A DNA stretch of 23,184 nucleotides, taken from the UHGV virus genome UHGV-0173641, one strand, 5' to 3'. The translations under genes and the position numbers were made by a program. This stretch comes from a virus. Below, one piece after another: positions 1 through 15,979 of this stretch. The notes under the pieces were generated by a model, which was not told where the DNA came from, searched no databases, and worked only from the letters and a program-made list of their open reading frames with translations. The stretch's first letter is position 1. Every line of letters begins with the position of its first letter.

Positions 1-236
1 CAAACGGCTAAATAAGTCGCGGGCATAAGGCATATTTTCATCAACAAGGATTTTTAACCCTTTTTCAGTCTCTGACAATCTAAGGCTCCTTTATCAACAA
101 ACGCCCATTTGCAAACTGCTGTTTAATCTGAAAAAACATTAATAATCATACAGATAGCAACATAACCATTTAGACGGGCAATACTGAAAAATTGTTATTC
201 AGTATCGCCCTTTAAGCCGTTTCAGGCTATATAAAA
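1..236. other. AT-rich region downstream of int; candidate att arm / prophage boundary (core not identified)
   Basis: P2-like phages place att immediately downstream of int. Region is visibly AT-rich and holds an 8-bp inverted repeat (atactgaa 181-188 / ttcagtat 198-205). No tRNA or tmRNA 3' end recognised by eye. Confidence 0.3.
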
Positions 237-1256
237 TTAATCCCCCGTGGACACTGCGTGGACACTTACGCCACCTTTCAGCGGATTAAGGGCCACCGCA
301 TCCTGCAGGTAATCCGGTGCAAAATGCGCATATGCCATTGTTTGCTGAATGGTTGCGTGGCCAAGAATCTTCTGAAGCGCAATAATGTTTCCTCCGTTCA
401 TCACAAAATGGCTGGCGAACGTATGCCGCAGCACATGTGCAGCCTGGCCTTTTGGTAAATCGGGCTTAACTCTTTTCAGCGCCAAGCAGAATTCCCGGTA
501 CTTCACCTCAAACAAGCCGCCTGTTTCTCTGGTTTTGATCGCCTCACAAACTGCCTGCGAAATTGGCACTGTTCTCTTTCGGCCATTTTTGGTTTCAAGA
601 AACGTTACACGGTTATGAACTATCTGTTCACCACGAAGCTTACAAGCTTCACTCCAGCGCGCCCCTGTGCTTAAACACAAAAGCGCAACACGCCAGTAGT
701 CGCCCTCCAATGTATCGAGCAATAGCGCTACTTCCTTCCGGGACAGGAAAGCCATTTCTCGCGGGGATACATAAAGAATAGAAATCCCCCTTACCGGATG
801 CTCTGCATCCCAGAGGCCTATTTTCTTCAGTACGGTAAACATTCCGGATAACCGATTCATATATCTGTTAGCAGATGACGGTTTCAATCCATCAGCTATC
901 TTTTGAGAACGCCACGCGATAATTTTCAGCTTATCAAGATCCACAGCCTGCATATCAGCGCCAAGCTCATTGATTATGTTGCGCAGTTGTTTTCGGTCTT
1001 CTTCCGCCTTACGCCTGTGCTGGCCGTGATACATCCACCACAACTCAAGCAAATCATTTAGCGTTCGACGATCACGGTAGCCCTGTATATATTCCCGCTT
1101 TTCAGCGTTCGCCATGATGTAGCGTTCAGTGGCCACCGCTACCGATTTTTTGTCAAATACCTTACGCACGCGCTTTCCCTTGCGTCCGTTCGGCCTGATG
1201 TCCAGCAAATAACGACCATCTTCGAGCTTCTTAATCGACATCGCGAAGCCCTCCAA
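237..1256 (-). CDS. int: Phage tyrosine integrase (P2-type site-specific recombinase)
   Basis: 339-aa ORF. C-terminal catalytic region (ARWSE...HVLRHTFASH...LGHATIQQTMAYAH) matches the tyrosine recombinase R..HxxR..Y pattern. Sits at the prophage end next to the repressor, as in P2. Confidence 0.9.
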   Translation of the reverse strand: MEGFAMSIKKLEDGRYLLDIRPNGRKGKRVRKVFDKKSVAVATERYIMANAEKREYIQGYRDRRTLNDLLELWWMYHGQHRRKAEEDRKQLRNIINELGADMQAVDLDKLKIIAWRSQKIADGLKPSSANRYMNRLSGMFTVLKKIGLWDAEHPVRGISILYVSPREMAFLSRKEVALLLDTLEGDYWRVALLCLSTGARWSEACKLRGEQIVHNRVTFLETKNGRKRTVPISQAVCEAIKTRETGGLFEVKYREFCLALKRVKPDLPKGQAAHVLRHTFASHFVMNGGNIIALQKILGHATIQQTMAYAHFAPDYLQDAVALNPLKGGVSVHAVSTGD

Positions 1257-1337
1257 TGAACCGCTCTACAATTTCTCCAGCCTCTTTCCAGCAATAATCA
1301 GACCAGACAAAAAGCAGGTCTAACCAGTTTTCTGGCC

Positions 1338-1658
1338 TCAGCGGGGTAATTTTTGTTTTGTTTCGGTTGAACTCTGATCGCCCTCCAAACTGGAGAAGCC
1401 ATCAAGAGAGAGAGCCGGAGAAATTTGCCCAACCTCCGGCATCGTTTCATCTGTTGATAACCAATAAGCATACTTCTTAAATTTTGGGTGTTTCGTAACC
1501 TTAAGTAAGGCCCCCTCTGTTACTTGCTTCCCCCTCACCTCATAGTTAGTTACCGTCCCATAAGGCAGCCCAACACAATCCGCAAACTCCTGGCGGGTCA
1601 TACCTTCTGCTTCACGAATCAGGCGAAATTTTTCACCCATGCTTGACAAAGATGCCAT
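1338..1658 (-). CDS. C: Immunity repressor, P2 C-type (small HTH repressor)
   Basis: Translation ...EKFRLIREAEGMTRQEFADCVGLPYGTVTNYE...ETMPEVGQISPALS resembles P2 C as I recall it (GVPYGTLSYYE, QIAPESGQIAPALA). Start chosen at the Met at 1658 (GGAGG about 10 nt upstream on the - strand; length ~106 aa, near P2 C at 99 aa). The ORF stays open to 1703 and a Met at 1640 is also possible. Confidence 0.8.
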   Translation of the reverse strand: MASLSSMGEKFRLIREAEGMTRQEFADCVGLPYGTVTNYEVRGKQVTEGALLKVTKHPKFKKYAYWLSTDETMPEVGQISPALSLDGFSSLEGDQSSTETKQKLPR

Positions 1659-1774
1659 ATCGGGCATATCCTCCATCGCAAACATGCCACATCGGGCACT
1701 CACACATAAAAAAGCTCAAATAAGCCTATATAAGCCATTTTGAGCCATTCGAACGAATTAAGGAGATTACCACA
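1641..1774. promoter_or_regulatory. C/cox lysis-lysogeny switch region with candidate divergent/face-to-face promoters and operator repeats
   Basis: Two direct repeats, gccatatcgggcatatc (1654-1670) and gccacatcgggcactc (1686-1701). Perfect TTGACA at 1643-1648 on the + strand; TATATAA-like box near 1727-1733. Lies between divergently transcribed repressor and cox. Confidence 0.45.
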
Positions 1775-2062
1775 ATGAGCGAATCAGAGCTTGAGGGGTT
1801 CATTCAGGTAGCACCATATCCACTTGAAGCGGTGCCATATCAACTATTCGCCAAGATGATTGGCCGCAAAGAATCAACCGTCAGAACCATGATTGACGCT
1901 GCAAAGCTACCAACGATTGACTTTGTAAAACCAGGTTCAGCAAAGACGCGAGCATCAGAAAACTGGGTATATCTGCCAGCATTTAACGCAGGTATGCGCA
2001 AAGCGTTTTTTGATCAGCCGAAAGAGCGCCGCGACGCATGGTTGCTCTGGCTGGGTCTTTGA
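1775..2062 (+). CDS. cox: Cox-like excisionase / early-promoter regulator
   Basis: 95-aa ORF; ...VPYQLFAKMIGRKESTVRTMID..LPTIDF...WVYLPAFNAGMRKAF...RRDAWLLWLGL resembles P2 Cox as I recall it (IPYQEFAKLIG...WVYLPAWNNG...RDGWLMWLGL). AGGAG upstream; divergent from the repressor. Confidence 0.8.
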   Translation: MSESELEGFIQVAPYPLEAVPYQLFAKMIGRKESTVRTMIDAAKLPTIDFVKPGSAKTRASENWVYLPAFNAGMRKAFFDQPKERRDAWLLWLGL

Positions 2063-2073
2063 CGAGGATTTTT

Positions 2074-2415
2074 ATGAGACAACAACGTAATTCACGCTTC
2101 CGCAACGGCGCAGAACGCCATGCTAACCGTTTCGCTACCAGCGCATCACGTAGCAGCTCTCGCTACAGCCTGAGCGAAACACACGCAACGCCGGATGGCT
2201 ACCCAGTAAAACAAATCGGCGAGCATACCTGGCTGATTGAGAAAGCTGGAATTGTGGTCCACAAATGCCCACGCAATCCGTTTACCGGAAACCGCATTTT
2301 TGCATTGAGCTGCGGCGACAATCACTTCGGGCAGGATTTCACATTATACGAAGCACTTCGCACGGTTGATCGTCTGCTTCGCGGGCAAAGTTTTATTAAA
2401 CAGGCTGATTTATAA
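2074..2415 (+). CDS. Hypothetical early-region protein (~113 aa)
   Basis: ORF with ATG at 2074 preceded by GAGG; same strand and tight spacing with the early operon. No family recognised. Confidence 0.5.
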   Translation: MRQQRNSRFRNGAERHANRFATSASRSSSRYSLSETHATPDGYPVKQIGEHTWLIEKAGIVVHKCPRNPFTGNRIFALSCGDNHFGQDFTLYEALRTVDRLLRGQSFIKQADL

Positions 2416-2425
2416 CAGGTGCTTT

Positions 2426-2704
2426 ATGACCAAAGAGCATGCACAAGGTGTATTTATCCGTTTTATTGATTTTCGCGGTGAACTGTTATTACGCGCATCA
2501 GCCATTGACGGAGTTGTTCCATCCGAAAAAAACGCAGCTACTTACGTTTATCTGAACGGTACGCGCCTGACTGTGGAGCTTCCGTACCAGACCGTACGAG
2601 AAATCATTAGCGAAGCTGAAAAGGCACGTCAGGTTAATGGCGATGAACCCTATATCGAAATTATTTGTATGGATTCAGAAACTGAAATTCAGAAAGCAGA
2701 TTAA
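2426..2704 (+). CDS. Hypothetical early-region protein (~92 aa)
   Basis: ORF starting at ATG 2426, 11 bp after the previous stop. No family recognised. Confidence 0.5.
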   Translation: MTKEHAQGVFIRFIDFRGELLLRASAIDGVVPSEKNAATYVYLNGTRLTVELPYQTVREIISEAEKARQVNGDEPYIEIICMDSETEIQKAD

Positions 2705-2715
2705 AGGGCGTTGCG

Positions 2716-2958
2716 ATGGGCAAAGAATATAAAACTCTCATTAACAAAGCACTTGAGCGTTTTTATTTTCGCTTAAGTGCATCAGGCGCTCATGCTGAAC
2801 GTGCAGCCCGTGACTCATTGACCAGGGCAATCCGGAGTCTGTATGACGTGGCTTTTTACGCTGATGATCTGGATGCACTTAACGAACTTTCCGAGCTGAT
2901 CTGTGCCGCAGAATGCGGGGAACATATTGAACCGTATCAGCTGGGGAATATCGCATGA
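2716..2958 (+). CDS. Hypothetical early-region protein (80 aa)
   Basis: ORF preceded by a weak SD; its stop overlaps the next start (ATGA at 2955-2958). Confidence 0.55.
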   Translation: MGKEYKTLINKALERFYFRLSASGAHAERAARDSLTRAIRSLYDVAFYADDLDALNELSELICAAECGEHIEPYQLGNIA

Positions 2959-3068
2959 GTATATTTATCTCATGGCCTGTTCTGATTATTTCGGTGGCCT
3001 GCGCCATTAGGATTATGCGAATTATTCATTCAGTAAAAAAGATTGAACGTTTTTTCACTGGTGAATAA
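2955..3068 (+). CDS. Small hydrophobic peptide (37 aa), predicted single transmembrane helix
   Basis: My translation: MSIFISWPVLIISVACAIRIMRIIHSVKKIERFFTGE. ATG overlaps the upstream stop (ATGA), suggesting translational coupling. Too short for the ORF track. Confidence 0.35.
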   Translation: MSIFISWPVLIISVACAIRIMRIIHSVKKIERFFTGE

Positions 3069-3161
3069 CGATACAAATAAAACATCAAATTAAATAAGAA
3101 AACGTGAAAACCATCCGTATTAACGGAGGTATTCGCACACGCAAATAACGGAGATACAAAA

Positions 3162-3572
3162 ATGCACGCAAAAGAAGAAGGTATCATCAGAGCACTGAGA
3201 GAAATTTCAAAGATGGAAAGCGAAGTAACGAAAAAAGCCGTAGCAAATAATCATATAGACGTCGCGACCCACACAATGATAGTCGCAAAAGTCACGGCAG
3301 AAGCCGCCAAAATCATCGAAGAACAGGGTGCGGAACTTACGCTTTTCAAAACTCAACCAGTCACCGGACTGGATTTATCTAACACCGGACGCCTTATTTA
3401 CACAATTGGCTCGGAGCCACAGCAATACACCATTATCGCCGGATTACAGGATAAATACTTGATCACTCCTCACCCCATAAGGGAATCAGAAATTCTGACA
3501 AATCTCCGCCTGATAGAGCGCTCTCAAGTCGCATTCATTGATGGCGCGCAACGTGCCGTATTTAACGCATAG
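3162..3572 (+). CDS. Hypothetical protein (136 aa) in an AT-rich islet; possible moron/accessory gene
   Basis: Clean ORF with GGAG about 9 nt upstream of the ATG, preceded by ~100 bp of visibly AT-rich non-coding DNA (3069-3161). No family recognised. Confidence 0.6.
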   Translation: MHAKEEGIIRALREISKMESEVTKKAVANNHIDVATHTMIVAKVTAEAAKIIEEQGAELTLFKTQPVTGLDLSNTGRLIYTIGSEPQQYTIIAGLQDKYLITPHPIRESEILTNLRLIERSQVAFIDGAQRAVFNA

Positions 3573-3595
3573 GGCTATTGGGCAAAGAGAGCGTA

Positions 3596-3799
3596 ATGGC
3601 AATTAAGCATTTTCCCGTCGTTCGCTTTACCTCCAGAGGACGCGAATACGAGGTCGACGAACGCCTGATTACCACTATCGACAAACATCGTTCGGAAAAG
3701 GATGCACACCACATCTACCTCACTGACGGCACTTATTTCTGCGCCACTAACGTGGCGCGGGTGAATCTTATCCGACAGGTACAGGAGCCACGCAGATGA
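3596..3799 (+). CDS. Hypothetical small protein (~67 aa)
   Basis: ORF frame 3578-3799; ATG at 3596 preferred (GAGAG 6-10 nt upstream), TTG at 3578 possible. Stop overlaps the next start (ATGA at 3796-3799). Confidence 0.5.
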   Translation: MAIKHFPVVRFTSRGREYEVDERLITTIDKHRSEKDAHHIYLTDGTYFCATNVARVNLIRQVQEPRR

Positions 3800-4062
3800 C
3801 CATTCTGGACTACATCGCTACCCATCCGGGTTGTAGCGGCGGAGAAATCGCAGCAGCACTGAATACTCCAACCACAGCCATTAATGCTGAGTTACGCCAA
3901 CTTTGGCGCGGCGGCTTAGTCATCAGAACAAACCGCAGCACAGGTGGTCGCGCTCGCAAAACTGGAGGCCAGGCTTCTTACCACGTAAACCCGATGCCGT
4001 TCGGGTGTAGCAATCCACTTACTCACATGTTTAACCAGCTACTGAAGGAAGCCAGAGCATGA
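3796..4062 (+). CDS. Hypothetical protein (88 aa), possible winged-helix DNA-binding fold
   Basis: ORF coupled to neighbours by ATGA overlaps at both ends. N-terminal segment (ILDYIATHPGCSGGEIAAALN...INAELRQLWRGGLV) looks wHTH-like; fold assignment is inference. Confidence 0.55.
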   Translation: MTILDYIATHPGCSGGEIAAALNTPTTAINAELRQLWRGGLVIRTNRSTGGRARKTGGQASYHVNPMPFGCSNPLTHMFNQLLKEARA

Positions 4063-4358
4063 GCACCATCAACCACCAGAAGCTACGCGAACTGGCATTT
4101 GCCCTGCAACGAATGGCAACGCCTCAAAAATTACTGGCATTTCGCGCAATGCTCTCGCCGTCTGCTGTGCTGGCACTGCTGGATGAGCTGGAGCACGCCA
4201 GAACCACGGCTCCTGCCATTCGCCTCACGCTCCATCATGAAATCACTGATTTCTGCGCGACATTGGAGGCGCCGGGCGAACCGGAAACGCCGGAAGCAAT
4301 ACAGCAAGAGCTGCTGCAACGCATTGACAAGGTTTTTGATTTTTTTCTGAACCAGTAA
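4059..4358 (+). CDS. Hypothetical protein (99 aa)
   Basis: ORF with ATGA coupling to the upstream gene; acidic, helical-looking sequence. Confidence 0.55.
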   Translation: MSTINHQKLRELAFALQRMATPQKLLAFRAMLSPSAVLALLDELEHARTTAPAIRLTLHHEITDFCATLEAPGEPETPEAIQQELLQRIDKVFDFFLNQ

Positions 4359-4479
4359 GAAACCAGAACATGCACACACAAAAAAACCGCTTGCCATGCC
4401 TCAATCGGTCAGGTTACATTTCCGCCGCACCTCATAAAACGGGTGCCGGGATTTCCACCCCGCTGACAACTACAGCGCA

Positions 4480-4503
4480 CAACCGCGCCAGCGGTTTTTT
4501 TGT
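4480..4503 (+). terminator. Candidate intrinsic terminator or attenuator inside the early operon
   Basis: aaccgc-gcca-gcggtt hairpin (6-bp stem, 4-nt loop) followed by a T7 run at 4494-4500, inside a ~320 bp non-coding gap. Confidence 0.45.
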
Positions 4504-4680
4504 GCGTACTGTATCGCCACGTCTTTTTCGCACACGAATTATGGTGGGGCGTACGGGGCCGACTTCGGTCGGGCCGGGTTCTGTAGTTGCCGGTTGTGGA
4601 AACCCTGTACGTCTCACCACCCCGAGTTTTCCACCTCTGGATGGTGAGTTTTCAAAACTTGCAACTACAGAGGCCACACC

Positions 4681-4911
4681 ATGGCAAACCGCAAACAGCA
4701 CCGCGCTATCGCGGAGCGTCGTCACATCCAGACTGAAATCAACCGCAGACTTTTCCGCGCATCACGCGTCGCGCAAATCATGCACATCAATATGCTGCAT
4801 GAGCGCAGCCACGCACTATCAAACATCTATTCCGCCGCTGTTTTCAGCTATCTGGCGGATGATCTGCACGAGCTTCAACAGCTCATCCAGCAGCAAAACA
4901 AACTCCATTAA
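4681..4911 (+). CDS. Hypothetical small basic protein (76 aa)
   Basis: ORF with GAGG ~8 nt upstream of the ATG; protein-like composition, unlike the overlapping 205-aa S/T/R-rich frame (4370-4987) that I reject. Confidence 0.45.
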   Translation: MANRKQHRAIAERRHIQTEINRRLFRASRVAQIMHINMLHERSHALSNIYSAAVFSYLADDLHELQQLIQQQNKLH

Positions 4912-4983: not shown

Positions 4984-5349
4984 ATGATTCTCGCCAACGA
5001 CTTTCTTGAATACCTGCTCAACACAGAGCGTGATCTTGCCGTTCGCGTGCGTGAACGTTATGACATGTACCTGAAATCCCTGCCTGTACCGCAGCTCGCT
5101 GACGGAAAGATTGTTATTGATGGTCGCTACATGATTGACAGCCACGAGGGAAATTACAGGCTTTACCGCATTGAAGGTGGCACCCCGTACGTTATTGGCA
5201 TTTACCAGCGCCCATCCTCTGCAATCGTCGATGTGATTGCCGACAGCATCCGCATCACACATCGCCATGCCGACACAGAAGACACCGTGCTGGAAATTCA
5301 GCGGCTGGCTACAGTCTGCCGCGACACCCTGAATGGCATGACGAAGTAA
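4984..5349 (+). CDS. Hypothetical protein (121 aa) immediately upstream of replication gene A
   Basis: ORF with GAGG upstream; stop 6 bp before the A start. Occupies the position of a replication accessory gene (P2 B-like position) but no similarity recognised. Confidence 0.55.
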   Translation: MILANDFLEYLLNTERDLAVRVRERYDMYLKSLPVPQLADGKIVIDGRYMIDSHEGNYRLYRIEGGTPYVIGIYQRPSSAIVDVIADSIRITHRHADTEDTVLEIQRLATVCRDTLNGMTK

Positions 5350-5355
5350 ATCACT

Positions 5356-8178
5356 ATGACGGCAGAGTACATCAGGGACTGGCAACAACCGCGCCACGCA
5401 GTGGGGCGTGAAGGAACGGGGATCCCCGCTCCTGAATCCGCGCTTTCCTCCTGGCTGGATGCTTACCGGGCAGAGAACGAGCGCCGCCAGGAAATGGCTG
5501 ATGCGGCGTTCTCCGCCACGCCGCTGGGCAACCTGATTAATAAAAGCCTGGACGCACAGGAAAAACAGGACAAAACCATCACACTGGCAGGAGACGCCAG
5601 AAAACAGGCACGCGGCGCGGTGGATGAAGCCATGGCCTCGCTGCGCCTGCTGCCGTCCTATCTGCGCGATCCGCTTATTCGCCACCTCTCCTTCCTGCGC
5701 AAAAAACAGGAAGCCGATCGCCAGAAAGGCAAAAAGAGCTGGCAGGCTGAACGCTACGCGCGCGGAACCCTGCGCAAAATATTCGAACGTCTGGACCGCA
5801 CCGACCACCGCTGGCTGACACGGGGTTATCGCGCCCTTGCCGGACGCGAACGCCTGGACGATTTGCTTTACCTGCCGCAGCTCAACAAGCACCAGATACA
5901 GACGCTGGCCACCATGACGGCGGCGATGTTCAGCAGCACCTTCGAAAAACTCTGCAATGGCTTTGGCGCGACCGATGGCGAGCTGACCATGGATGTAACC
6001 CTGAAGGCGTATCAGATGCTGGCCCGCATGGCGTTACACCTGCACGCCATGCCTCCACATTATGACGCACTGACAACAGACAAAGACCGGAGGAACGAAC
6101 CGGACACGGAACTGCTGCCGGGCGCAATCCTTCGCCTGACCTGTGCGGAATGGTGGAAACGCAAACTGTGGCTGTTACGTTGCGAGTGGAGAGAAGAACA
6201 ACTCCGCGCCGCCTGTCTGGTTTCCAGAAAGACATCGCCCTATCTGAGCCAGGACGCGTTAAGCGAGTTTCGCGCACAGCGCGAGAAAACACGCGATTTC
6301 CTGAAAAGTTTCATGCTGGAAAACGAAGATGGGTTCACGATTGATCTCGAGACAGTGTATTACGCGGGAGTAAGTAACCCGGTTCACCGTAAGGCAGAAA
6401 TGATGGCCACCATGAAGGGGCTGGAACTTCTGGCCGAAGCCCGTGGCGACAAAGCGGTGTTTCTGACTGTCACCTGCCCGTCAAAATACCACGCCACAAC
6501 AGAGAACGGTCATCCGAATCCCAAATGGAACGGGGCCACCATGCGCGACTCCAGCGATTACCTGGTTAACACGTTTTTTGCGGCGGTCCGCAAGAAACTG
6601 AACCGCGACGGCCTGCGCTGGTATGGCATCCGCACGGTGGAGCCTCACCATGACGGCACCGTGCACTGGCATATGATGGTCTTTGCTCATCCGGAAGAAA
6701 TCGACAGCATCGTGGCCATCACCCGCGATATTGCCATTCAGGAAGACCGCCACGAGCTGGGCAATGATATTACTCCGCGCTTTAAGGCGGAGTATGTCGA
6801 CGGCTCAAAAGGCACACCAACCAGCTACATCGCGACCTACATCGGGAAAAACCTGGACAGCCGTGCCGTGGATGGCATCGACCCGAAAACGGGCAAGCCA
6901 CGCGTTGACCACGAAACCGGAAAATCAATGGCCGAGAGCGTGGAACGCGCCATCGGCTGGGCGCGCCTTCACCGGGTCCGCCAGTTCCAGTTCTTTGGCA
7001 TCCCCTCCCGCCAGGTATGGCGTGAACTGCGCCGCCTTGCCAGCCAGATGGCACGCAACCCGGAAGGCCCGCAACGGCTGAAGGATGACGCAATGGATGC
7101 GGTTCTTGCCGCCGCTGATGCCGGATGTTTTGCCACCTACATAGAGAAACAGGGCGGCGTACTTGTTCCACGCAAAGACTACCTGATTCGCACCGCCTAC
7201 GACCTCGCCGATGAGCTGAACGATTACGGCGAACAGAGCGTACAGATTTACGGGATCTGGTCACCACTCATCGGGGAATCCTCCCGTGTGTGCACGCATC
7301 CGGATAACTGGAAGCTGGTAAGACGCAAACCGGAAGCGAAAGACAGCGCCAGCGAAAATGGTTTTGACCTTCAGGGCGGCCCTGCCGCCCCTTGGACTCG
7401 TGGCAATAACTGTCCCCGTGTACAGGAAACGGACAACAACGGGACAGAACAGCCGGAAGAACGGCCAGCACCGTGGCCGCAGCTTCCTGACGGCGTTGAT
7501 GTGGATGAATGGATGCGCTCACTGAAACGGCACGAACGCCGGGCGCTGATGCGTTCGCTGCGTGACAAACAGGCAAAAAACAGCAGTGATGAAATGCAGA
7601 GCTGGACACAGAGCCGCAAACAGCAGCGGCCTTTGCCTGATAACCACGAATTACTCGCTAAAGAATGGCGGGAGTCTGCCGAATCTCTCGGCCTGCATAT
7701 CGGTGAACAGCAGATGCAGCACCTGTTACGGGGCGGCAGCCTGTACGTTGACGGCAGCATCATTGCACCGCAGGGATTTGAAATTGTACGCAAACCGGAT
7801 ACCCGCCCGGACAGCCGAATCACGCAGCTCTGGCAGCGCCTGAGCCGTAATCACGGCGTAAGCAGCACGGAGATCCGCCATAACCCGGTCGCCGGCTATC
7901 TGGAACAGCTGGGGGCATCAGACCCCGAAGCCGCCGCACGCCTGGCATCCACACTTCAGCAGGACCAGAACACCATGAAAACCCCCGTTACCGTGCTTTC
8001 TGACATGCTGCGCGCCATCCGTGACGCAGAGCACGCACAGAGAATCAGTGAAACCACTGAACGCGCCCGCCGCAAAGCAGACCTGCTGCGGGGTAGCCTG
8101 ACCAGTGGAAACAAAAAACAGACAGAAACGGGATTCACAAAACCCGTAAATGAGCAAAAAACGCGCCGCGATATATGA
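5356..8178 (+). CDS. A: Replication initiation endonuclease, P2 gpA-like rolling-circle initiator (940 aa)
   Basis: Large ORF in the P2 A position. Contains an H-x-H (HWH) and paired tyrosines (YIATYIGKN) consistent with the HUH rolling-circle motifs of this family. About 180 aa longer than P2 A as I recall it (761 aa), with a charged/low-complexity C-terminal third. Confidence 0.85.
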   Translation: MTAEYIRDWQQPRHAVGREGTGIPAPESALSSWLDAYRAENERRQEMADAAFSATPLGNLINKSLDAQEKQDKTITLAGDARKQARGAVDEAMASLRLLPSYLRDPLIRHLSFLRKKQEADRQKGKKSWQAERYARGTLRKIFERLDRTDHRWLTRGYRALAGRERLDDLLYLPQLNKHQIQTLATMTAAMFSSTFEKLCNGFGATDGELTMDVTLKAYQMLARMALHLHAMPPHYDALTTDKDRRNEPDTELLPGAILRLTCAEWWKRKLWLLRCEWREEQLRAACLVSRKTSPYLSQDALSEFRAQREKTRDFLKSFMLENEDGFTIDLETVYYAGVSNPVHRKAEMMATMKGLELLAEARGDKAVFLTVTCPSKYHATTENGHPNPKWNGATMRDSSDYLVNTFFAAVRKKLNRDGLRWYGIRTVEPHHDGTVHWHMMVFAHPEEIDSIVAITRDIAIQEDRHELGNDITPRFKAEYVDGSKGTPTSYIATYIGKNLDSRAVDGIDPKTGKPRVDHETGKSMAESVERAIGWARLHRVRQFQFFGIPSRQVWRELRRLASQMARNPEGPQRLKDDAMDAVLAAADAGCFATYIEKQGGVLVPRKDYLIRTAYDLADELNDYGEQSVQIYGIWSPLIGESSRVCTHPDNWKLVRRKPEAKDSASENGFDLQGGPAAPWTRGNNCPRVQETDNNGTEQPEERPAPWPQLPDGVDVDEWMRSLKRHERRALMRSLRDKQAKNSSDEMQSWTQSRKQQRPLPDNHELLAKEWRESAESLGLHIGEQQMQHLLRGGSLYVDGSIIAPQGFEIVRKPDTRPDSRITQLWQRLSRNHGVSSTEIRHNPVAGYLEQLGASDPEAAARLASTLQQDQNTMKTPVTVLSDMLRAIRDAEHAQRISETTERARRKADLLRGSLTSGNKKQTETGFTKPVNEQKTRRDI

Positions 8179-8226
8179 AGCGCGCATAAAACAGGCAAAA
8201 ACGGGATTTAAAAACCCCGTAAACGA
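8113..8226. repeat. Two ~41-bp direct repeats (8113-8153 and 8186-8226), each with an internal ACGGG...CCCGT dyad; candidate parC-like centromere/operator
   Basis: aaaaaacagacagaaacgggattcacaaaacccgtaaatga versus ataaaacaggcaaaaacgggatttaaaaaccccgtaaacga, about 34 of 41 identical by hand alignment, 73 bp start-to-start. Copy 1 lies in the last codons of A, copy 2 in the gap upstream of the ParM-like gene. Confidence 0.6.
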
Positions 8227-8254
8227 TTAATTAATCAACATAAGGAAAATCGAC

Positions 8255-9214
8255 ATGAAAATCTGTATCGACGACGGCTCCACCAACATCAAGCTGGCAT
8301 GGACTGAGAACGGCGAACGCCGCAACGCCATCAGCCCGAACAGCTTCAAATCGGAATGGTCTGCGCCGTTCGGTGGCATGCAGCCCGCAAACTACATGCT
8401 TGATGGCGTGCGCTATGGTTTTGATCCGGTCAGCGATCGATTTGTCCAGACGACCGACACGCAATACCAGTACAGCGATGTGAATGTAATTGCCATTCAT
8501 CACGCGCTGGTCAAATCAGGCATCACGCCACAGGAGGTGGATGTGGTTGTCACCCTGCCACTGAGCGAGTATTTCGACACAAACGCACAACCGGACATGG
8601 CCAACATCAACCGCAAAAAAGCGAACGTTATGCGCCCGGTGGAATACCAGAACGGCGAAGCATTCACTATCCGTAATGTACGGGTTATGCCTGAATCCAT
8701 TCCGGCTGGCTTTAAAGCACTGGCTGACATGAGTCCGTTTGAATCCCTGCTGATTGTGGATTTAGGCGGAACCACGCTGGATGTGGCAAAGGTTCAGGGA
8801 CAACTGGCAGGTATCAGCCAGGTGTTTTGCGATCCACACGTAGGCGTTTCCCTGATGGCCGATGCCGTACTGTCGGTGATGGCCACCAACGGTATGCGTA
8901 CCAGTCACCACATCGCCAATACCATTATCGAACATCGCCATGATGAAGCCTGGCTGCGCCAGCACATCCACAATGACGCGCATTACGGCAGCCTGATGGC
9001 GGTTATTCGTGAAAAGGAAGAAACACTGAAACAACGAGTGATCCGCGCGCTGGCGGGTTTTTCGGGTTACGGGCGGGTGATGGTTGTCGGTGGCGGGGCG
9101 GAGATTGTGGCACCCGCTATCCGCGAAGCCTGCGGAGTTAATGCGGCTTTCATCGCAGACGGGGTGCCACAGTTTGCTCTGGTCAATGGTTTGTACGCAA
9201 TGGACAAGGAGTAA
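8255..9214 (+). CDS. parM: ParM/StbA-like actin-type ATPase (type II plasmid partition family)
   Basis: 319 aa. N-terminus MKICIDDGSTNIKLAW and LIVDLGGTTLDVAK, plus SDVNVIAIHHAL, VMPESIPAG, MVVGGGAE and LVNGLY, match plasmid R1 ParM as I recall it (MLVFIDDGSTNIKLQW..., LIIDLGGTTLDIS, VMVIGGGAE). Strong AAGGA RBS. Confidence 0.88.
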   Translation: MKICIDDGSTNIKLAWTENGERRNAISPNSFKSEWSAPFGGMQPANYMLDGVRYGFDPVSDRFVQTTDTQYQYSDVNVIAIHHALVKSGITPQEVDVVVTLPLSEYFDTNAQPDMANINRKKANVMRPVEYQNGEAFTIRNVRVMPESIPAGFKALADMSPFESLLIVDLGGTTLDVAKVQGQLAGISQVFCDPHVGVSLMADAVLSVMATNGMRTSHHIANTIIEHRHDEAWLRQHIHNDAHYGSLMAVIREKEETLKQRVIRALAGFSGYGRVMVVGGGAEIVAPAIREACGVNAAFIADGVPQFALVNGLYAMDKE

Positions 9215-9218
9215 ACCC

Positions 9219-9530
9219 ATGACGACATCAACCTGGCGGATAAGTTTCTATCTGAAGCCCTCCGCTGTCAAGAACGAAGGCGAAGCATGCGCCTGGCTGG
9301 ACAGCCTTACACCAGAAGCCCGCAAAAGCGGCCAACGCGTGGCTTTTCTGGCCGGGCTGGCACTTCTGAAAATGAATCCGGCAGAGGCTTACCGACTGGC
9401 TGCATGGGCTGATGATGAAGTGTTATCAGTGACACAGACCAGGACAGAACGCCCCGCATCACAGCCAGTATCAACCGCACAGATAACCAGTCAGATGGCC
9501 GGAAATATCCGGGCGTTATTTCCTGAATAA
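9219..9530 (+). CDS. parR: ParR/StbB-like adaptor protein (small DNA-binding partner of ParM)
   Basis: 103 aa from ATG 9219, 4 bp after the parM stop, with AAGGAG upstream. ISFYLKPS...LDSLTPEARKSGQRVAFLAGLAL...NIRALFPE resembles R1 ParR as I recall it (IAFKLNPD...LDSIPQGERSRLNRAALTAGLAL...NILRSLFP). The longer ORF-track start at 9084 is rejected. Confidence 0.65.
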   Translation: MTTSTWRISFYLKPSAVKNEGEACAWLDSLTPEARKSGQRVAFLAGLALLKMNPAEAYRLAAWADDEVLSVTQTRTERPASQPVSTAQITSQMAGNIRALFPE

Positions 9531-9536
9531 CACAAC

Positions 9537-9558
9537 ATCAGGGCGAGTTCGCCCTGAT
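9537..9558. promoter_or_regulatory. Perfect 10-bp inverted repeat (atcagggcga-gt-tcgccctgat): candidate operator or terminator stem
   Basis: Palindrome between the parR-like stop (9530) and the GTG start at 9583. No T-run follows, so a protein-binding site or RNA stem is as likely as a terminator. Confidence 0.45.
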
Positions 9559-9582
9559 AACACTATCCAAAGGAGGCAAGCA

Positions 9583-10590
9583 GTGAGCATCATTCAGCGC
9601 TGCCGAGCAGAAAACACTTTTAATTTGGTTTCCATGTCTGGCGGGAAAGACTCACTGGCGCAATGTTTGTATGCCATAGAAAACGATATACAGCATGAGC
9701 GAGTGTTTGCTGATACGGGGCACGAACACCCACAAACGATGGAGTACCTTGACTATCTGGAACAAAAGCTGGGACCAATTCGCCGCGTAAAAGCCGACTT
9801 CACTCGCCAGATAGAAGGTAAGCGCAAATTCATTGCTGAAAAATGGCCAGTATCTCTTGTTGCAGAGTGCGGAATGACGCCTGATGAAGCAGCGGAACGT
9901 GTTGCTTGTGCGCTGGAAATCCTCCACCCAACCGGAAATCCATTTCTTGATCTGTGCATGTGGAAAGGTCGTTTCCCGAGCACTAAAGCGCGGTTCTGTA
10001 CATTCGAACTGAAACACGAACCAGTGCGCACTCAGGTGGTGCAACCTGCGCTTGATGAATATGACGAAGTTATCTCCTGGCAGGGTGTGCGTGCTCAGGA
10101 ATCGCCATCGAGGGCACGCCTGCAAGTGTGGGAGGAAGATGCGGACAATACCCCCGGATTGCATGTCTATCGTCCGATTTTCAACTGGCTACATGAGGAT
10201 GTTTTCGCTATTGCCAGGCGTCACGGGATTAAACCCAACCCGCTCTACCAACAAGGATGCAGCCGCGTTGGGTGTATGCCATGCATTCATGCCAGAAAAT
10301 CTGAACTGGCGGAAATTTTTCAGCGTTGGCCAGAGGAAATCGCCAGAGTGGCAGAGTGGGAACGATTAGTTGCAGCCTGCTCTCGCCGCGGCAACTCAAC
10401 GTTTTTCCCGTCAACTCATGACCCGCGCCGGGCAGAACGTCGCATAGATGTTGTTACCGTAGACAGCTACGGAATCGAAACCTATCGCGACTGGGCAATG
10501 ACAACCCGGGGCGGCGCTCAATTTGACCTGCTGGCGAGCACGAACGATAAGGCGGTGTGCAACAGTGTTTATGCGGGAGTATGCGAATGA
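9583..10590 (+). CDS. PAPS reductase-like / PP-loop ATP pyrophosphatase family protein (335 aa) with C-terminal Cys cluster
   Basis: N-terminal PP-loop SMSGGKDS (SGGxDS) typical of the PAPS reductase / DndC-like superfamily. Cysteine cluster CSRVGCMPC (Cx4Cx2C). GTG start with strong AAAGGAGG RBS. Last gene before the cos region. Confidence 0.8.
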   Translation: MSIIQRCRAENTFNLVSMSGGKDSLAQCLYAIENDIQHERVFADTGHEHPQTMEYLDYLEQKLGPIRRVKADFTRQIEGKRKFIAEKWPVSLVAECGMTPDEAAERVACALEILHPTGNPFLDLCMWKGRFPSTKARFCTFELKHEPVRTQVVQPALDEYDEVISWQGVRAQESPSRARLQVWEEDADNTPGLHVYRPIFNWLHEDVFAIARRHGIKPNPLYQQGCSRVGCMPCIHARKSELAEIFQRWPEEIARVAEWERLVAACSRRGNSTFFPSTHDPRRAERRIDVVTVDSYGIETYRDWAMTTRGGAQFDLLASTNDKAVCNSVYAGVCE

Positions 10591-10665
10591 ACAGCATGAA
10601 AATACTGTTACCCGACATCTGATTTTACTTCTTCAAATCAGGGCAATAATCACGCATCGCCCTGC

Positions 10666-10764
10666 TGCACAATAGTGCACAAATTTGCACAATTTTTTTG
10701 AACGACTTTTTGCCCTTCCGGCCCGCATGGCGGCTGGATCCGTCAGGGATCCGTGCGTGCACAA
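10666..10764. repeat. Phased TGCACAA repeats in the cos-proximal intergenic region; candidate terminase-binding (cosB-like) sites
   Basis: TGCACAA at 10666-10672, 10676-10682 and 10686-10692 (exact 10-bp phasing), plus a fourth copy at 10758-10764. Confidence 0.45.
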
Positions 10765-11115: not shown

Positions 11116-12162
11116 TCAGGATGTGGGCTGGGTGTCTAACAGTGCGTAAGGGTTAAAGCGGATCACCTCTTCGCCAAGCCAGTCATTGATGTGCTTCATG
11201 GCCTCCATGACGGGCATCAGCTCGTTAATTGCGTAAACCCGCGCGGCCTTCTCCACATCACCAAACGCACTTTTTTCGCCCGGCATCGCCCCCATCAGTT
11301 GCGGCGGAACGCGGTGCGCAGCCAGCACATCATCACGGGATGCCGCCTTAACATTCATGAACTCATCCTTTGCGGTGATCTGCTGGAACGGCAAAATTTG
11401 CACCCCCTCTTTGCCCCCGTTGGGCGCATGGATGAGCACGTTTTTAAACGCGCCACCACCACGCGCACCCTGTAACGTTTCTTTCAGGGAGTCCATGCTT
11501 TCGCGGTTTACCTGCGCTGCACCGATGTAGATGATGCACCCGGCGTGGGATCCATTGTCGTAGTACAGTTTTCTGAACATGTCCGCCGAATGAGACAGGC
11601 TGGCCGAGAGTAATGCGCCGAGATATTCCGGCATGCCGTAGATTTCCTGGTTAATATCCGGATTCATCAGGTGGCACACTTTGCCAGGGCGAAACTGAAA
11701 CGCATCCTTGCCATCCTGCACATACCACCATGATTCAAGATCACTTCCGCGTCGCATGTATTTCGCCAGGGCGTGCCGTAATTTAAGCGGTTCGCCGAGC
11801 ATATTGCTCCGAAGCTCAAGGAATGCGTTACCGAACACAAACCAGTCCAGCGCCAGCGCCGAGAAATCCTGCCGGGAAAGCAGCGGGTGCGGAATATAGC
11901 AACCGAGCAATACATTGCGCTTAAAGTAAAGCGCAGACTGATGCCAGGACGTTTGCCGGGCGGCTCTTGCCAGACCGTACCAGTCCACCGGGGTTTCATA
12001 CCACCGCCCGTTATCAGCACAGTACATATTGTCCAGCAAATCATGCCCGGTCAGGCGATAAGGACCATCAAATGTGAATGCACTGAGAGACGATTCTTTC
12101 CTGAGCGCATCAGCGAGATCAATGCGTGAACTCATGCGCACTTTTTTATTTTTTCTGCTCAT
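11116..12162 (-). CDS. Q: Portal protein (P2 gpQ-like)
   Basis: 348-aa ORF on the - strand directly downstream of the terminase ATPase with a 1-nt overlap; size and position match P2 Q (about 344 aa as I recall). Confidence 0.88.
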   Translation of the reverse strand: MSRKNKKVRMSSRIDLADALRKESSLSAFTFDGPYRLTGHDLLDNMYCADNGRWYETPVDWYGLARAARQTSWHQSALYFKRNVLLGCYIPHPLLSRQDFSALALDWFVFGNAFLELRSNMLGEPLKLRHALAKYMRRGSDLESWWYVQDGKDAFQFRPGKVCHLMNPDINQEIYGMPEYLGALLSASLSHSADMFRKLYYDNGSHAGCIIYIGAAQVNRESMDSLKETLQGARGGGAFKNVLIHAPNGGKEGVQILPFQQITAKDEFMNVKAASRDDVLAAHRVPPQLMGAMPGEKSAFGDVEKAARVYAINELMPVMEAMKHINDWLGEEVIRFNPYALLDTQPTS

Positions 12163-13913
12163 CAGAACTCCATAACCATGAAACGCTCGTTTTCTCCTTC
12201 GCCGCCAATTGGTTCGTTAATGACAGCAAGCATGGTTGCCCACGCAAGGTCGCCGTGGCTGATCCCCCTCGCGCGGTCCGTTTCGTAAGTGATAAAGCCG
12301 CCCGGTGTTTTCACCTTACGCACGGCGTTAAAGGCCGCGACCAGCTCGCGTTCGGCGCGATCGTATTCCCACCGCCCGGCACGCATTATTTGCAGCATTT
12401 TCAGTACCAGCGACCGTTTTGATGACAGCGTGAAGGTGTACGGAATAGCGGCAGGGAAAAACCGTTTCACTATCTGATAAACAGCCTCTCCGTTCCCGCC
12501 CGTTACATCAATGCCGATGTGTTCCACGTTGTAGCGACACGTGAACTCTTCAATGACTCTGGCCTGTTCTTCAAACTCCAGCCCCTGAACGCGTCGCGTC
12601 TCCACCGTTCGAAAACGGCCACCAGGAACAGCCGGAGGAACCACCACGGACACAGCGCCGCTGTCGCCGTTGCCACTGCTGCCGTTTGCGTCATACCCAA
12701 TCCATACCGGACGATTCCCCATCGGGCGGGGAGCAAAAGGTTTCCAGTCTTTCCAGTCGTCGTATCCGTCAACACCGCAGCCAATCAGGATATTCAGGTT
12801 AAATGCCGATTCCCCTTCGCGGACAAACTCACACATATAGAGATTGAGGAACTCGTCTTCGGTGTTTTCATCACGAATTTCGTCGATATCGGTGTGTTTC
12901 CAGCCGTGATTGACCACATCTTCCAGCGTGACAATTTGCCGCCATGTCCGGTCAGGGCAGATAAGCCCGTTATGCAGCGTTTTCCAGTCCACAGAAAAAC
13001 GCTGGCGTTTATGCGAGGCCTTTTTCTCGTTCCAGCGGTCGCCGTTCCAGTAGGCGTATGCCTCGTGCGTTTCGGTGGATGGCGTGGAGAAGTAGGTGCG
13101 CCGCAGTCCGCTGAGGGTTGCCATAGCGCCAGCCACCTTGCGCAGTTCAGCAAAGCGACTGACCCAGAAAAATTCATCAAAATAAAAATTGCCCGTATAG
13201 GACTGTGCCGACGCAGCAGAAGTGCCGAGAAAATGCAGCTCTGCGCCGTTGGAGAGGATGATTTTATCGCCCCCTTTCAGCTCCACATCAACTTCAGCCG
13301 CGGCCTTCTGAATAATGCTTTTAAACTGGAACGCCTGACGACGCGACGCAGACAAAAAAATCTGGTTACGCTGGTAAGGTTGCGCCACATCGTCACGCAG
13401 CGCCATCAGCAGTGCTTCCTGTGCAAAATACCAGGTCGCCCCAATCTGTCGGGATTTCAGGATCATCCTGTTACGTATCCCGGCTTCCCTGCAAAGGGTC
13501 AGGGAGTCAAACCAGCCCCGCTGATGCCACTCCAGCCTGCTGATGATTTTTTCCCGCAGTGCGGCAATCTGTTCCGGCGTGAAATGATTTTTGAGTTTTT
13601 TCGCCCGGCCTTTCTTTCCTGCGGCCATCACATCCGGCTGGCCATCATGCAGCTTTTTAAGCTGCCGGGTCAGCAGGTCTATTTCCTTAAAGTCACCGCC
13701 TGTTTTATTCTGTTTTTCAGTAAGCTGGATGAGGCGCGCATCGATGGACTGCGTGACACGCTGCACGGGTGGCGTTTCATCCCACTGGTCGCGTTTTTTC
13801 CACGCATAAATCGTGTTCGGGTTTATTCCCATCAGACGTGAGATTTCTGCGGGCGGATAACCCTGCCAGTAAAGTTGCCGCGCACGCTGGCGCACAAAAG
13901 CGTCCTGAATCAT
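12162..13913 (-). CDS. P: Terminase large (ATPase) subunit (P2 gpP-like)
   Basis: 583-aa ORF; N-terminus MIQDAFVRQRARQLYWQGYPPAEISRLMG is P2 P-like; divergent from the O-N-M-L operon as in P2. Confidence 0.88.
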   Translation of the reverse strand: MIQDAFVRQRARQLYWQGYPPAEISRLMGINPNTIYAWKKRDQWDETPPVQRVTQSIDARLIQLTEKQNKTGGDFKEIDLLTRQLKKLHDGQPDVMAAGKKGRAKKLKNHFTPEQIAALREKIISRLEWHQRGWFDSLTLCREAGIRNRMILKSRQIGATWYFAQEALLMALRDDVAQPYQRNQIFLSASRRQAFQFKSIIQKAAAEVDVELKGGDKIILSNGAELHFLGTSAASAQSYTGNFYFDEFFWVSRFAELRKVAGAMATLSGLRRTYFSTPSTETHEAYAYWNGDRWNEKKASHKRQRFSVDWKTLHNGLICPDRTWRQIVTLEDVVNHGWKHTDIDEIRDENTEDEFLNLYMCEFVREGESAFNLNILIGCGVDGYDDWKDWKPFAPRPMGNRPVWIGYDANGSSGNGDSGAVSVVVPPAVPGGRFRTVETRRVQGLEFEEQARVIEEFTCRYNVEHIGIDVTGGNGEAVYQIVKRFFPAAIPYTFTLSSKRSLVLKMLQIMRAGRWEYDRAERELVAAFNAVRKVKTPGGFITYETDRARGISHGDLAWATMLAVINEPIGGEGENERFMVMEF

Positions 13914-14926: not shown

Positions 14927-15979
14927 ATGAATCTGGTGATGTCAGATATTACCCGCAATAAGCTGGGTTGCTATATGGCGCAGCAGGCGTCGCTTAACAA
15001 TATCCCGGTTTCTGCGCTGGTATCGAGATTTACCGTGGAACCCGCGGTGCAGCAGCGTTTTGAAAACGCCTCAAAGGACAGCACAGAATTAACGAAAAGA
15101 ATTAACGTGATCGGCGTGACCGACCAGAAAGGCGAAAAAATCCTCCTGGACACCACAGGACCGATTGCGCGCACGAATACCAGTTATGACGGCACAAAAC
15201 GCCGTAACCCGAATAACGTGGTTAATCTGAAAAACCGCAAATACCAGTGCGAACAGGTGAACTACGACACGTTTATTTCGTATCCGCAGCTTGATGCCTG
15301 GTCGGCACACCCTGATTTTCAGTCCCGCATCAGCGCACAGATTGCCCGACAGGTGGCGCTTGACCGCATCATGATCGGTTTCAACGGCACGTCTCACGCG
15401 GATGAGTCCAACTTCAGCACCAACAAGCTGCTTCAGGACGTTAACGTGGGCTGGCTGGAGCACATCAGAACCGACGCCAGCGAACGCGTTATGAATGACG
15501 TGACGCTGACCTCCCGCAACATGGACAACACCGTGGCGCACGTGGGTAAGTATGCGAACGCTGATGCACTGGTACAGGACGCGCGTTCATCCCTGCTGGA
15601 TGAATGGCACAAGGAAGCTGACGACCTCGTGGTGATTATGGGGCGCAACCTGTTTAACTCGCTGCGTCTGCCCGTGCTGAACAGCATCAGCGGCCAGAAT
15701 CCCAATGCGGAATTACTTGCCGGGCAGCTCATCCTGTCATCGCGCACCATTGGCGGGCTGGGCGTGTTCCTTGCGCCGTTCTTCCCGGATGCAACGATGC
15801 TGATCACCTCGTTCAACAACCTGTCGATTTACTGGCAGAAAGGTTCAATGCGTCGTCTGATGAAAGACGAACCGGAATACAACCGTATCGCCACCTACCA
15901 GTCCATCAATGACGCTTATGTCGTTGAAGACTATGGCAAGTGCGCGATGGTCACTGGCCTGAAGTTCGCCGACAGCTAA
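14927..15979 (+). CDS. N: Major capsid protein (P2 gpN-like)
   Basis: 350 aa, AAGGAG RBS. Motifs KFTVEP, MIGFNG, VGWL, NLSIYW and YVVEDY match P2 N as I recall it. Confidence 0.9.
   Translation: MNLVMSDITRNKLGCYMAQQASLNNIPVSALVSRFTVEPAVQQRFENASKDSTELTKRINVIGVTDQKGEKILLDTTGPIARTNTSYDGTKRRNPNNVVNLKNRKYQCEQVNYDTFISYPQLDAWSAHPDFQSRISAQIARQVALDRIMIGFNGTSHADESNFSTNKLLQDVNVGWLEHIRTDASERVMNDVTLTSRNMDNTVAHVGKYANADALVQDARSSLLDEWHKEADDLVVIMGRNLFNSLRLPVLNSISGQNPNAELLAGQLILSSRTIGGLGVFLAPFFPDATMLITSFNNLSIYWQKGSMRRLMKDEPEYNRIATYQSINDAYVVEDYGKCAMVTGLKFADS

Follow-up and report, generated by a model that had tools for sequence, protein, structure and literature searches.

A plasmid-type parMR module in the backbone of P88-like P2-family prophages and its possible role in segregating circular phage DNA

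The stretch of DNA analysed here (hereafter the window) comprises 23,184 nt of the virus genome UHGV-0173641 and carries a plasmid-type partition module within a P2-family integrative prophage of the P88-like (Xuanwuvirus) type. The module consists of parM, which encodes an actin-fold ATPase, and parR, which encodes a small adaptor, and it lies directly 3' of gpA, the gene for the P2-type rolling-circle replication endonuclease. Its presence in such phages is already known, having been annotated and remarked on in print. We find that the module is intact, under strong purifying constraint, part of a phage-specific ParM clade with a constant gene order and nearly always located in chromosomes. 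Our preferred reading, to which we give a probability of roughly 55%, is a functional ParMRC machine that would segregate or position extrachromosomal circular phage DNA. The module and its immediate surroundings contain the following features:

8112–8153: repeat 1, A/C-rich, core AAACGGGATTCACAAAACCCGTAAA, within the 3' coding end of gpA, the last ∼67 nt of which overlap the repeat
8185–8226: repeat 2, core AAACGGGATTTAAAAACCCCGTAAA, in the gpA–parM spacer
8255–9214, plus strand: parM, actin-fold ATPase of 319 amino acids, with the Pfam StbA_N and ParM C-terminal domains
9219–9530, plus strand: parR (stbB), adaptor of 103 amino acids, matching Pfam Plasmid_stab_B (E = 1.1e-22)
9537–9558: perfect 10-bp inverted repeat (hairpin), directly 3' of parR

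The parM and parR genes

The ParM protein matches the Pfam StbA_N family (E = 2.7e-82) and the ParM C-terminal domain (E = 8.6e-68) with end-to-end coverage, and it matches R1 ParM (PDB 1mwk and others) across residues 2–316 (E = 1.3e-92) with ∼50% identity over the full length. A preliminary description of this DNA had pointed to the actin-fold motifs IDDGSTNIKL, LIVDLGGTTLD and VVGGGAE. All three are present, and DDGSTNIK, PESIPAG, DLGGTTLD and GGGAE are identical in ParM and R1 ParM when the two are aligned, i.e. the phosphate-1, phosphate-2 and adenosine motifs are retained. The same description placed a ParR-like gene 4 bp after parM, as in the R1 par operon, and this is also borne out: the parM stop codon (9212–9214) is followed by ACCC and then by the parR start codon at 9219, and the product belongs to the Plasmid_stab_B family. 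ParR is 33% identical to the ParR of an IncF plasmid. A PDB search with the single ParR sequence gave no match and a ten-sequence profile was needed, which matched the pB171 ParR/StbB structure (2JD3) over its full length (E = 4.3e-16). Similarity to ParM/StbA and ParR/StbB had been proposed as a check on the identification, and the Pfam, R1 ParM and 2JD3 profile matches provide it. In the PHROGs database the two proteins are assigned to phrog_691 (ParM) and phrog_2515 (ParR), both named 'partition protein', while NCBIfam has no model above cut-off for either.

ParR begins with a predicted DNA-binding segment, continues with a helical core and a variable linker, and ends in a C-terminal tail. 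Encoded right after parM and with a predicted ribbon-helix-helix-type N-terminus, it has the properties of the small adaptors of the R1/pB171 type. The N-terminus (MTTPTRRISFYLKP) is near-invariant, and conservation extends to a motif at the C-terminus (..NIxAxFPE). In an alignment that includes more distant phage and plasmid ParRs, the tail (..KKNIxAxFPE) is matched to the last residues of the IncF ParR (..KKNAMKLIN), with N96 invariant and F101 nearly so; in R1, the extreme C-terminus of ParR is the ParM-binding peptide. The E. coli-type ParR lacks a middle segment of ∼20 residues that plasmid and other phage ParRs have.

Two parR allele families are distinguished in the helical core (..VKNEGEACAWLDSLTPEARKSGQRV.. 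versus ..VKSEREACNYLDSLPASERSRAQRA...), and the N-terminal sequence TRRISFYLKP is identical across both, with the copy in the window as the sole exception (see below). Both families co-occur with nearly identical parM and upstream DNA (window 9273–9530; loci L041, L043, L050, L085 and others), and DNA homology of several phages to the window ends at ∼9273, inside parR. This suggests recombination breakpoints inside parR, together with diversifying change in the linker.

Two IMG/VR loci (L050 and L105, at 5321–5377) contain a 57-nt piece of parM (nt 274–330, 88% identity) duplicated 3' of parR.

Repeats upstream of parM

Repeats 1 and 2 form a 42-nt direct repeat with 35 of 42 positions identical and a spacing of 73 nt. 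When the A-rich surroundings were shuffled 2000 times with dinucleotide composition preserved, this identity was never reached (maximum 28), and the 25-nt core of the repeat has just two occurrences in the 23-kb window. In most of the E. coli relatives, the core of repeat 2 differs at three positions, which have C, G and T; as we read them, these changes would convert it into a near-palindrome (ACGGGATTCAGAATCCCCGT). The repeats do not co-vary with the ParR allele family.

Comparable features occur at a similar position in more distant loci. Plesiomonas has an analogous two-copy repeat (GCGGGACAACAAAAACCCG...) with a spacing of 72 nt across its gpA stop codon, and the 11-mer CAAAAACGGGA is found 125–127 nt 5' of the parM start codon in two Serratia loci and in an Enterobacter-type contig. 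A related motif initiated by ACGGGA or GCGGGA begins 127 nt (window) and 133 nt (Plesiomonas) 5' of the parM start codon. The distance of 125–133 nt is thus kept in five lineages (that of the window and four others), regardless of whether the position is coding or intergenic. An IncF R1-type plasmid has the same general layout, with two A/C-rich 43-nt clusters at a spacing of 94 nt 5' of parM. We consider the two 42-nt repeats of the window to be a likely ParR-binding site, i.e. a candidate parC-like centromere.

A different structure is seen in Serratia (L002, 7888–7941) and Enterobacter (L006, ∼6885–6945), where, in addition to CAAAAACGGGA, a ∼13-nt inverted repeat (GAAATAGAAAAAT ... ATTTTTCTATTTC) surrounds a GC-rich hairpin. 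It may represent a variant centromere or operator.

Selection and integrity of the module

We estimated the ratio of nonsynonymous to synonymous substitution rates (dN/dS) by the pairwise Nei–Gojobori method, with the following results:

parM: dN/dS 0.05 (69 alleles)
gpA, last 332 codons (C-terminal third): dN/dS 0.20 (64 alleles)
parR, codons 1–65 (N-terminal part): dN/dS 0.15 (35 alleles)
parR, codons 66–92 (linker): dN/dS 0.66 (28 alleles)
parR, codons 93–103 (tail): dN/dS 0.03 (14 alleles)

The parM gene is constrained like a core phage gene. Within parR the linker is hypervariable, and the overall pattern is the one expected if selection acts on the adaptor's contacts with DNA as well as on those with ParM. 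Because the N-terminus and the tail are constrained while the linker is free to change, ParR appears to be a working partition adaptor.

ParM is encoded by an intact open reading frame for 319 amino acids in 85 of 85 close loci, a set that is biased in that it consists of the best 80 of 243 IMG/VR matches and a few others. Some other copies are broken. In two widespread E. coli lineages (loci L109–L112) parM is split into parts of 188 and 130 or of 229 and 72 amino acids, the corresponding protein clusters having 555 and 649 member sequences, and in phage 503458 ParM is in four pieces. The GPO scaffold gene is short (171 amino acids) in two of the split-parM prophages (L109 and L110), which suggests general prophage decay. 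The occurrence of parM pseudogenes in resident prophages fits a function that is not needed for inheritance of the integrated copy.

These broken copies bear on the possibility that the integrated prophage expresses parMR to act on the chromosome itself, e.g. by pushing apart sister copies of the prophage region or influencing segregation locally, or that ParR is mainly a transcriptional regulator. In favour of such a role, nearly all copies of the module are chromosomal. R1-type parC holds the par promoter, which ParR autoregulates, and if this also applies here the module could be switched on in lysogens. However, the loss of parM by nonsense or frameshift mutation in widespread resident lineages speaks against a benefit to the host, and a purely regulatory ParR would leave the strong constraint on the ParM ATPase unexplained. 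We therefore regard a chromosomal or regulatory role as quite improbable.

A phage-specific ParM clade

We then compared ParM with its relatives in plasmids, phages and bacterial genomes. Among plasmid records, non-phage ParMs reach at best ∼52% identity to that of the window, and the range from 60% to 95% is empty. A large protein search supplied intermediates from Plesiomonas (63%), Hafnia (62%), Serratia (57–58%) and Enterobacter (54%). Among 50,697 phage records, relatives of ParM are limited to 14 P88-like records and D6. The latter, a P1-like plasmid prophage (phage-plasmid), has a size of 91 kb and an annotated 'StbA type plasmid stability protein'; its ParM is 48% identical, a plasmid-like level. 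In a neighbour-joining tree of 111 ParMs, from which the D6 protein was left out, all P2-linked sequences fall into one clade of 17 that has no known non-phage context inside it. In all clade members with a readable context, parM and parR lie 3' of gpA and 5' of the portal and terminase genes of a P2-like phage. The clade includes Escherichia, Salmonella, Citrobacter, Plesiomonas, Hafnia, Serratia and Enterobacter, and since the pattern step of the genome-contig scan restricted it to 18 loci, this taxonomic breadth is a lower bound.

The ParMs outside a P2 context are all at most 54% identical and are found on an integrated plasmid, on an integrative and conjugative element (ICE), on ordinary plasmids and beside impB/mucB-like neighbours. 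An identity threshold for a 'phage-type' ParM was tried and fails: P0025, at 54%, has an impB/mucB-like neighbour and plasmid-like surroundings, and the tree places it outside the clade. The group is therefore defined by the clade and not by a percentage.

Between phages of the clade, ParM is 54–63% identical, compared with 29–55% for gpA and 31–47% for the portal protein. The clade, the synteny and the identity gap together argue against a recent capture from any known plasmid. Instead, the module is an old, vertically inherited backbone component of one P2-family lineage (P88-like/Xuanwuvirus and relatives).

One could also regard the module as a relic of a plasmid or phage-plasmid ancestor that has no present function. 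Some copies are pseudogenes and most P2-like phages lack the module, as a relic would lead one to expect. By contrast, the low dN/dS of parM (0.05 across 69 alleles), the region-specific constraint on ParR and the retention of the same position in phages whose gpA is just 29–55% identical speak against this, and we find a functionless relic hardly credible.

Host element and chromosomal residence

The other genes that characterize the element in the window are:

237–1256, minus strand: tyrosine integrase
1775–2062: Cox
5356–8178, plus strand: gpA, P2-type rolling-circle replication endonuclease (Pfam Phage_GPA, E = 9.1e-131)
11116–12162, minus strand: portal
12162–13913, minus strand: terminase
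14927–15979: P2 major capsid protein

A baseplate J protein gene is likewise within the window. The nearest upstream gene to parM is gpA, on the same strand and separated from it by a 76-bp spacer. In E. coli GDSC2BY4G, a chromosomal prophage beside btuC is 99.7% identical to window 8100–10700, and parMR DNA is 94–97% identical in the phages P88 and P884B11 (Xuanwuvirus), PhiSM of Citrobacter rodentium and others. We assign the element to the P88-like integrative P2-family prophages because of its gene set, the chromosomal copy in GDSC2BY4G and the identity with P88, P884B11 and PhiSM. The preliminary description had likewise seen an integrative P2-like phage and had asked why an integrated prophage would need a partition system; the integrase, Cox, gpA, portal, terminase and capsid genes agree with the first point, and the second is a real puzzle.

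The left part of the GDSC2BY4G prophage (L001), the closest genome, is apparently non-collinear with window 1–4900, and the offsets of its integrase and early genes differ from those of the window. These non-matching offsets, read from gene positions, suggest a mosaic immunity/early region.

Across 5426 complete E. coli genomes, parMR DNA is present in 1316 (24%), at 1468 chromosomal places versus 2 on plasmids, and the neighbouring early region is found at 1727 chromosomal places versus 2 on plasmids (1727/1729). At the DNA level only eight records of the plasmid collection match, five of them at least 228 kb in size. By its location in complete E. coli genomes the module is thus not that of a low-copy plasmid (>99.8% of its places are chromosomal), nor is the element, as a phage-plasmid would be, a separate replicon in most of its hosts. 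One of the eight, NZ_CP148288.1 of E. coli Z1323PEC0009, is the only phage-sized circular 'plasmid' record found. Its 34,461 bp make up a complete phage of the P88-like type, including integrase, Cox, gpA and structural genes in addition to parMR. Another strain has a 99.9% identical phage in its chromosome, and the chromosome of Z1323PEC0009 is not among the matches listed in the complete E. coli genomes. The record may be a true episome, or the assembler may have picked up an excised circle.

These data allow us to evaluate whether the phage is a facultative or stable plasmid prophage that ParMR keeps as a low-copy episome. The preliminary description had raised a plasmid-like lifestyle, and the same speculation was made by Rousset et al. 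2022 (PMC9122126), who reported that about a fourth of P2-like phages have a putative partitioning system. By homology the module is a plasmid-stability system; NZ_CP148288.1 is a circular record of a whole phage, and a 32-kb Plesiomonas contig is approximately phage-sized. Yet 1468 of 1470 parMR places and 1727 of 1729 early-region places are chromosomal, every phage-clade locus with enough flanking sequence has an integrase or chromosomal flanks, and the near-twin (99.9%) of NZ_CP148288.1 is chromosomal elsewhere, while spontaneous excision can also give a circular contig. Moreover, no plasmid-type replication initiator was seen in the window, where gpA is a rolling-circle initiator. A plasmid-like state as the normal condition is disfavoured by these counts, and we consider a plasmid prophage of either kind unlikely. 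The P2 ori nick sequence, taken as GCGCCTCGGAGTCCTGTCAA, has no match at up to three mismatches.

Two matches come from assemblies assigned to Firmicutes. On a 226-kb contig of Vagococcus sp. WN89Y (L012), parM is 97% identical and is accompanied by gpA and portal genes of the E. coli-phage type, and a contig of a Lachnospiraceae metagenome-assembled genome (L026) carries a ParM at 51%. Both look like enterobacterial DNA that was mis-binned into, or contaminates, these assemblies.

End of the backbone and the variable cargo

The 61-nt stretch that includes the hairpin (9525–9585) has a folding energy of −18 kcal/mol (z = −3.5). There is no T-run on the plus strand, and terminator is a candidate function only. 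Homology of the phages P88 and PhiR44_2 to the window ends at 9558 (query position 1459), which is the end of the hairpin. Beyond it, the stretch from parR to the portal gene in 58 close loci ranges from 991 to 3081 bp and contains more than 10 unrelated gene families. Since homology ends at 9558 and the cargo differs among loci, the variable old/tin-type hotspot starts after parMR. The conserved backbone reaches 9558, and parMR should therefore not be counted as 'cargo' when the gpA–portal locus is mined for defence genes.

The cargo of the window is a plus-strand gene at 9583–10590 that encodes a 335-residue PAPS-reductase/PP-loop protein (Pfam PAPS_reduct, 1.6e-36; phrog_424, 5e-83). Against PADLOC it gives partial matches to SspD (6e-25), BrxP and DndC. 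The gene is common only to the window and the GDSC2BY4G prophage; it is present at this site in 1 of the 5426 complete E. coli genomes, whose annotation calls it a pseudogene because of an internal stop. At this position in the P2 gpA–portal hotspot, it is a candidate for cargo that acts as a single gene in DNA modification or defence. Elsewhere the cargo includes HicAB in Serratia and a KAP NTPase in Enterobacter.

Given this location, parMR itself might be accessory cargo of the P2 gpA–portal (old/tin) hotspot that acts in defence, superinfection exclusion or plasmid incompatibility, and the first two of these roles had been suggested in the preliminary description. The tables of Rousset et al. 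2022 (PMC9122126) list StbA + Plasmid_stab_B arrangements at the gpA–portal locus, which is described there as a hotspot of antiviral systems, and only a fraction of P2-like phages have the module. However, neither ParM nor ParR matches a PADLOC family, and the module is constant in the clade (85/85 close loci) while variable cargo is seen only past 9558 (58 loci). Furthermore, unlike exchanged cargo, the clade has diverged across genera in step with the backbone of the phages, and the constraint on ParR is that of a working partition adaptor. We read the occurrence in about a fourth of P2-like phages as lineage-specific rather than as a sign of swapping. A defence or exclusion role is not supported by these results, and that parMR is hotspot cargo of any of the three kinds seems to us improbable.

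Proposed role in the circular phase of the phage

As far as sequence can show, the module has, or plausibly has, everything that ParMRC requires in order to work. By homology with R1 and pB171, ParR dimers would bind the two A/C-rich repeats (8112–8153 and 8185–8226), the conserved C-terminal tail of ParR would capture the ends of ATP-ParM filaments and the growing filaments would push parC-bearing DNA molecules apart. The substrate would be the circular extrachromosomal phage genome, both after infection and before integration and again after excision, with the module presumably expressed in these phases. We favour such a substrate because ParMRC needs parC-bearing molecules that can be pushed apart, and a role in the circular phase because the precedents discussed below, SrpMRC and AlpAC, serve integrated elements in that phase. 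In P2-type phages, gpA starts rolling-circle replication that yields monomeric circles. The benefit could be one or both of the following: (a) each daughter cell would receive a phage copy, which would prevent abortive lysogeny and prophage loss, in parallel with SrpMRC; and (b) replicating circles would be spaced for efficient replication or packaging, in parallel with AlpAC. The preliminary description had proposed segregation of replicating genomes during lytic growth. Of the roles raised there, segregation, or else positioning, of replicating phage genomes outside the chromosome would be the best fit.

Several points weigh against a ParMRC machine acting on phage circles. (i) The lytic cycle is short, and partition to daughter cells may then be irrelevant. 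(ii) A lone non-replicating circle before integration offers ParMRC nothing to separate. (iii) Most other P2-like phages do without parMR. (iv) The candidate centromere consists of two 42-nt copies, unlike the ten 11-bp iterons of R1, and its assignment is circumstantial. (v) Among the E. coli copies, conservation of the repeats does not clearly exceed that of the flanking DNA; the comparison is indecisive, since a few misaligned sequences raise the value for the flanks and repeat 2 varies a fair amount. (vi) Repeat 2 resembles a minus-strand terminator. (vii) A scan for sigma-70 promoters across 7900–9700 found none; it is uninformative because the control, the IncF R1-type parC region with its known promoter location, was equally negative. 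(viii) The ParR of the window has a private R6W substitution in its conserved basic N-terminus: it reads MTTSTWRISF (codon 6, 9234–9236), where 85 of 85 other close copies, including that of GDSC2BY4G, have R. Situated just before the presumed DNA-binding strand, the substitution may make this copy weaker in DNA binding, or it may be a sequencing error.

The negative promoter scan had first been read as co-transcription of parMR with gpA, an interpretation that was dropped once the IncF parC control also proved negative. In the Serratia and Enterobacter loci, the matches found by the scan overlap the start codon.

A more far-reaching proposal is that the module is a core life-cycle component of the whole integrating P2-family lineage, providing for an actively segregated extrachromosomal phase, either as a facultative carrier or plasmid state or by segregation of monomer circles so that both daughter cells become lysogenic. 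We offer this as a speculative extension that is rather doubtful at present. If such a phase exists, the line between integrative phages and phage-plasmids would be blurred, as SrpMRC blurred it for ICEs. The preferred reading, segregation or positioning of phage circles, would have consequences of its own for lysogenization efficiency, prophage stability and spontaneous prophage loss in E. coli and its relatives.

Comparison with known systems

E. coli genomes very often contain the module, and its presence has been recorded repeatedly, while its function has apparently never been tested: we found no functional study of it in the literature. RefSeq names the two products 'plasmid segregation protein ParM' and 'plasmid partitioning/stability family protein', and in the paper on PhiSM (PMC6456863) the gene appears among the 'fitness' factors.

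With its actin-like ATPase and DNA-binding adaptor on a normally integrated element, the module belongs with a small number of systems described outside autonomous plasmids. In SXT/R391 ICEs, the excised form resembles a plasmid and replicates from an origin that the relaxase nicks, and the SrpMRC system makes its loss less frequent (Carraro, Poulin and Burrus 2015; PMC4489591). Both are ParMRC-related modules on normally integrated elements, and here the module adjoins gpA, a nicking rolling-circle initiator. The two differ in that SrpM and SrpR are described as distant relatives of R1 ParMR, whereas the phage module is close to it, and in that the host of SrpMRC is an ICE while here it is a phage, in which excision usually leads to lysis. 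Tailed phages would have their own counterpart of SrpMRC if the module does segregate or position phage circles.

The second precedent is AlpAC/alpS of the Corynebacterium glutamicum prophage CGP3, which, according to Donovan et al. 2015 (PMC4446434), is induced early and needed for efficient replication of phage DNA. It resembles the present module in belonging to an integrated prophage and in combining an actin-like ATPase with an adaptor that binds, or here is predicted to bind, 5' of the operon. It differs in that its ATPase, going by its description, belongs to another actin-like family and its host is Gram-positive. The AlpAC adaptor, according to the same paper, binds upstream of the alpAC operon; in the phage module the ATPase gene comes first. 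Our preferred reading, if correct, would add a second, Gram-negative case of a prophage that uses its own actin.

The closest relatives by family are the type II ParMRC systems of R1/NR1 and pB171, which share with the phage module the protein families, the order of parC-like repeats, parM and parR, and the A/C-rich clusters upstream. These systems are plasmid-borne, whereas the module studied here is in an integrating tailed phage. Compared with R1 and pB171, the phage ParM forms a separate clade and the phage ParR is shorter (103 amino acids). The candidate centromere also departs from R1 parC in its two 42-nt units, its 73-nt spacing and its partial overlap with the gpA coding end.

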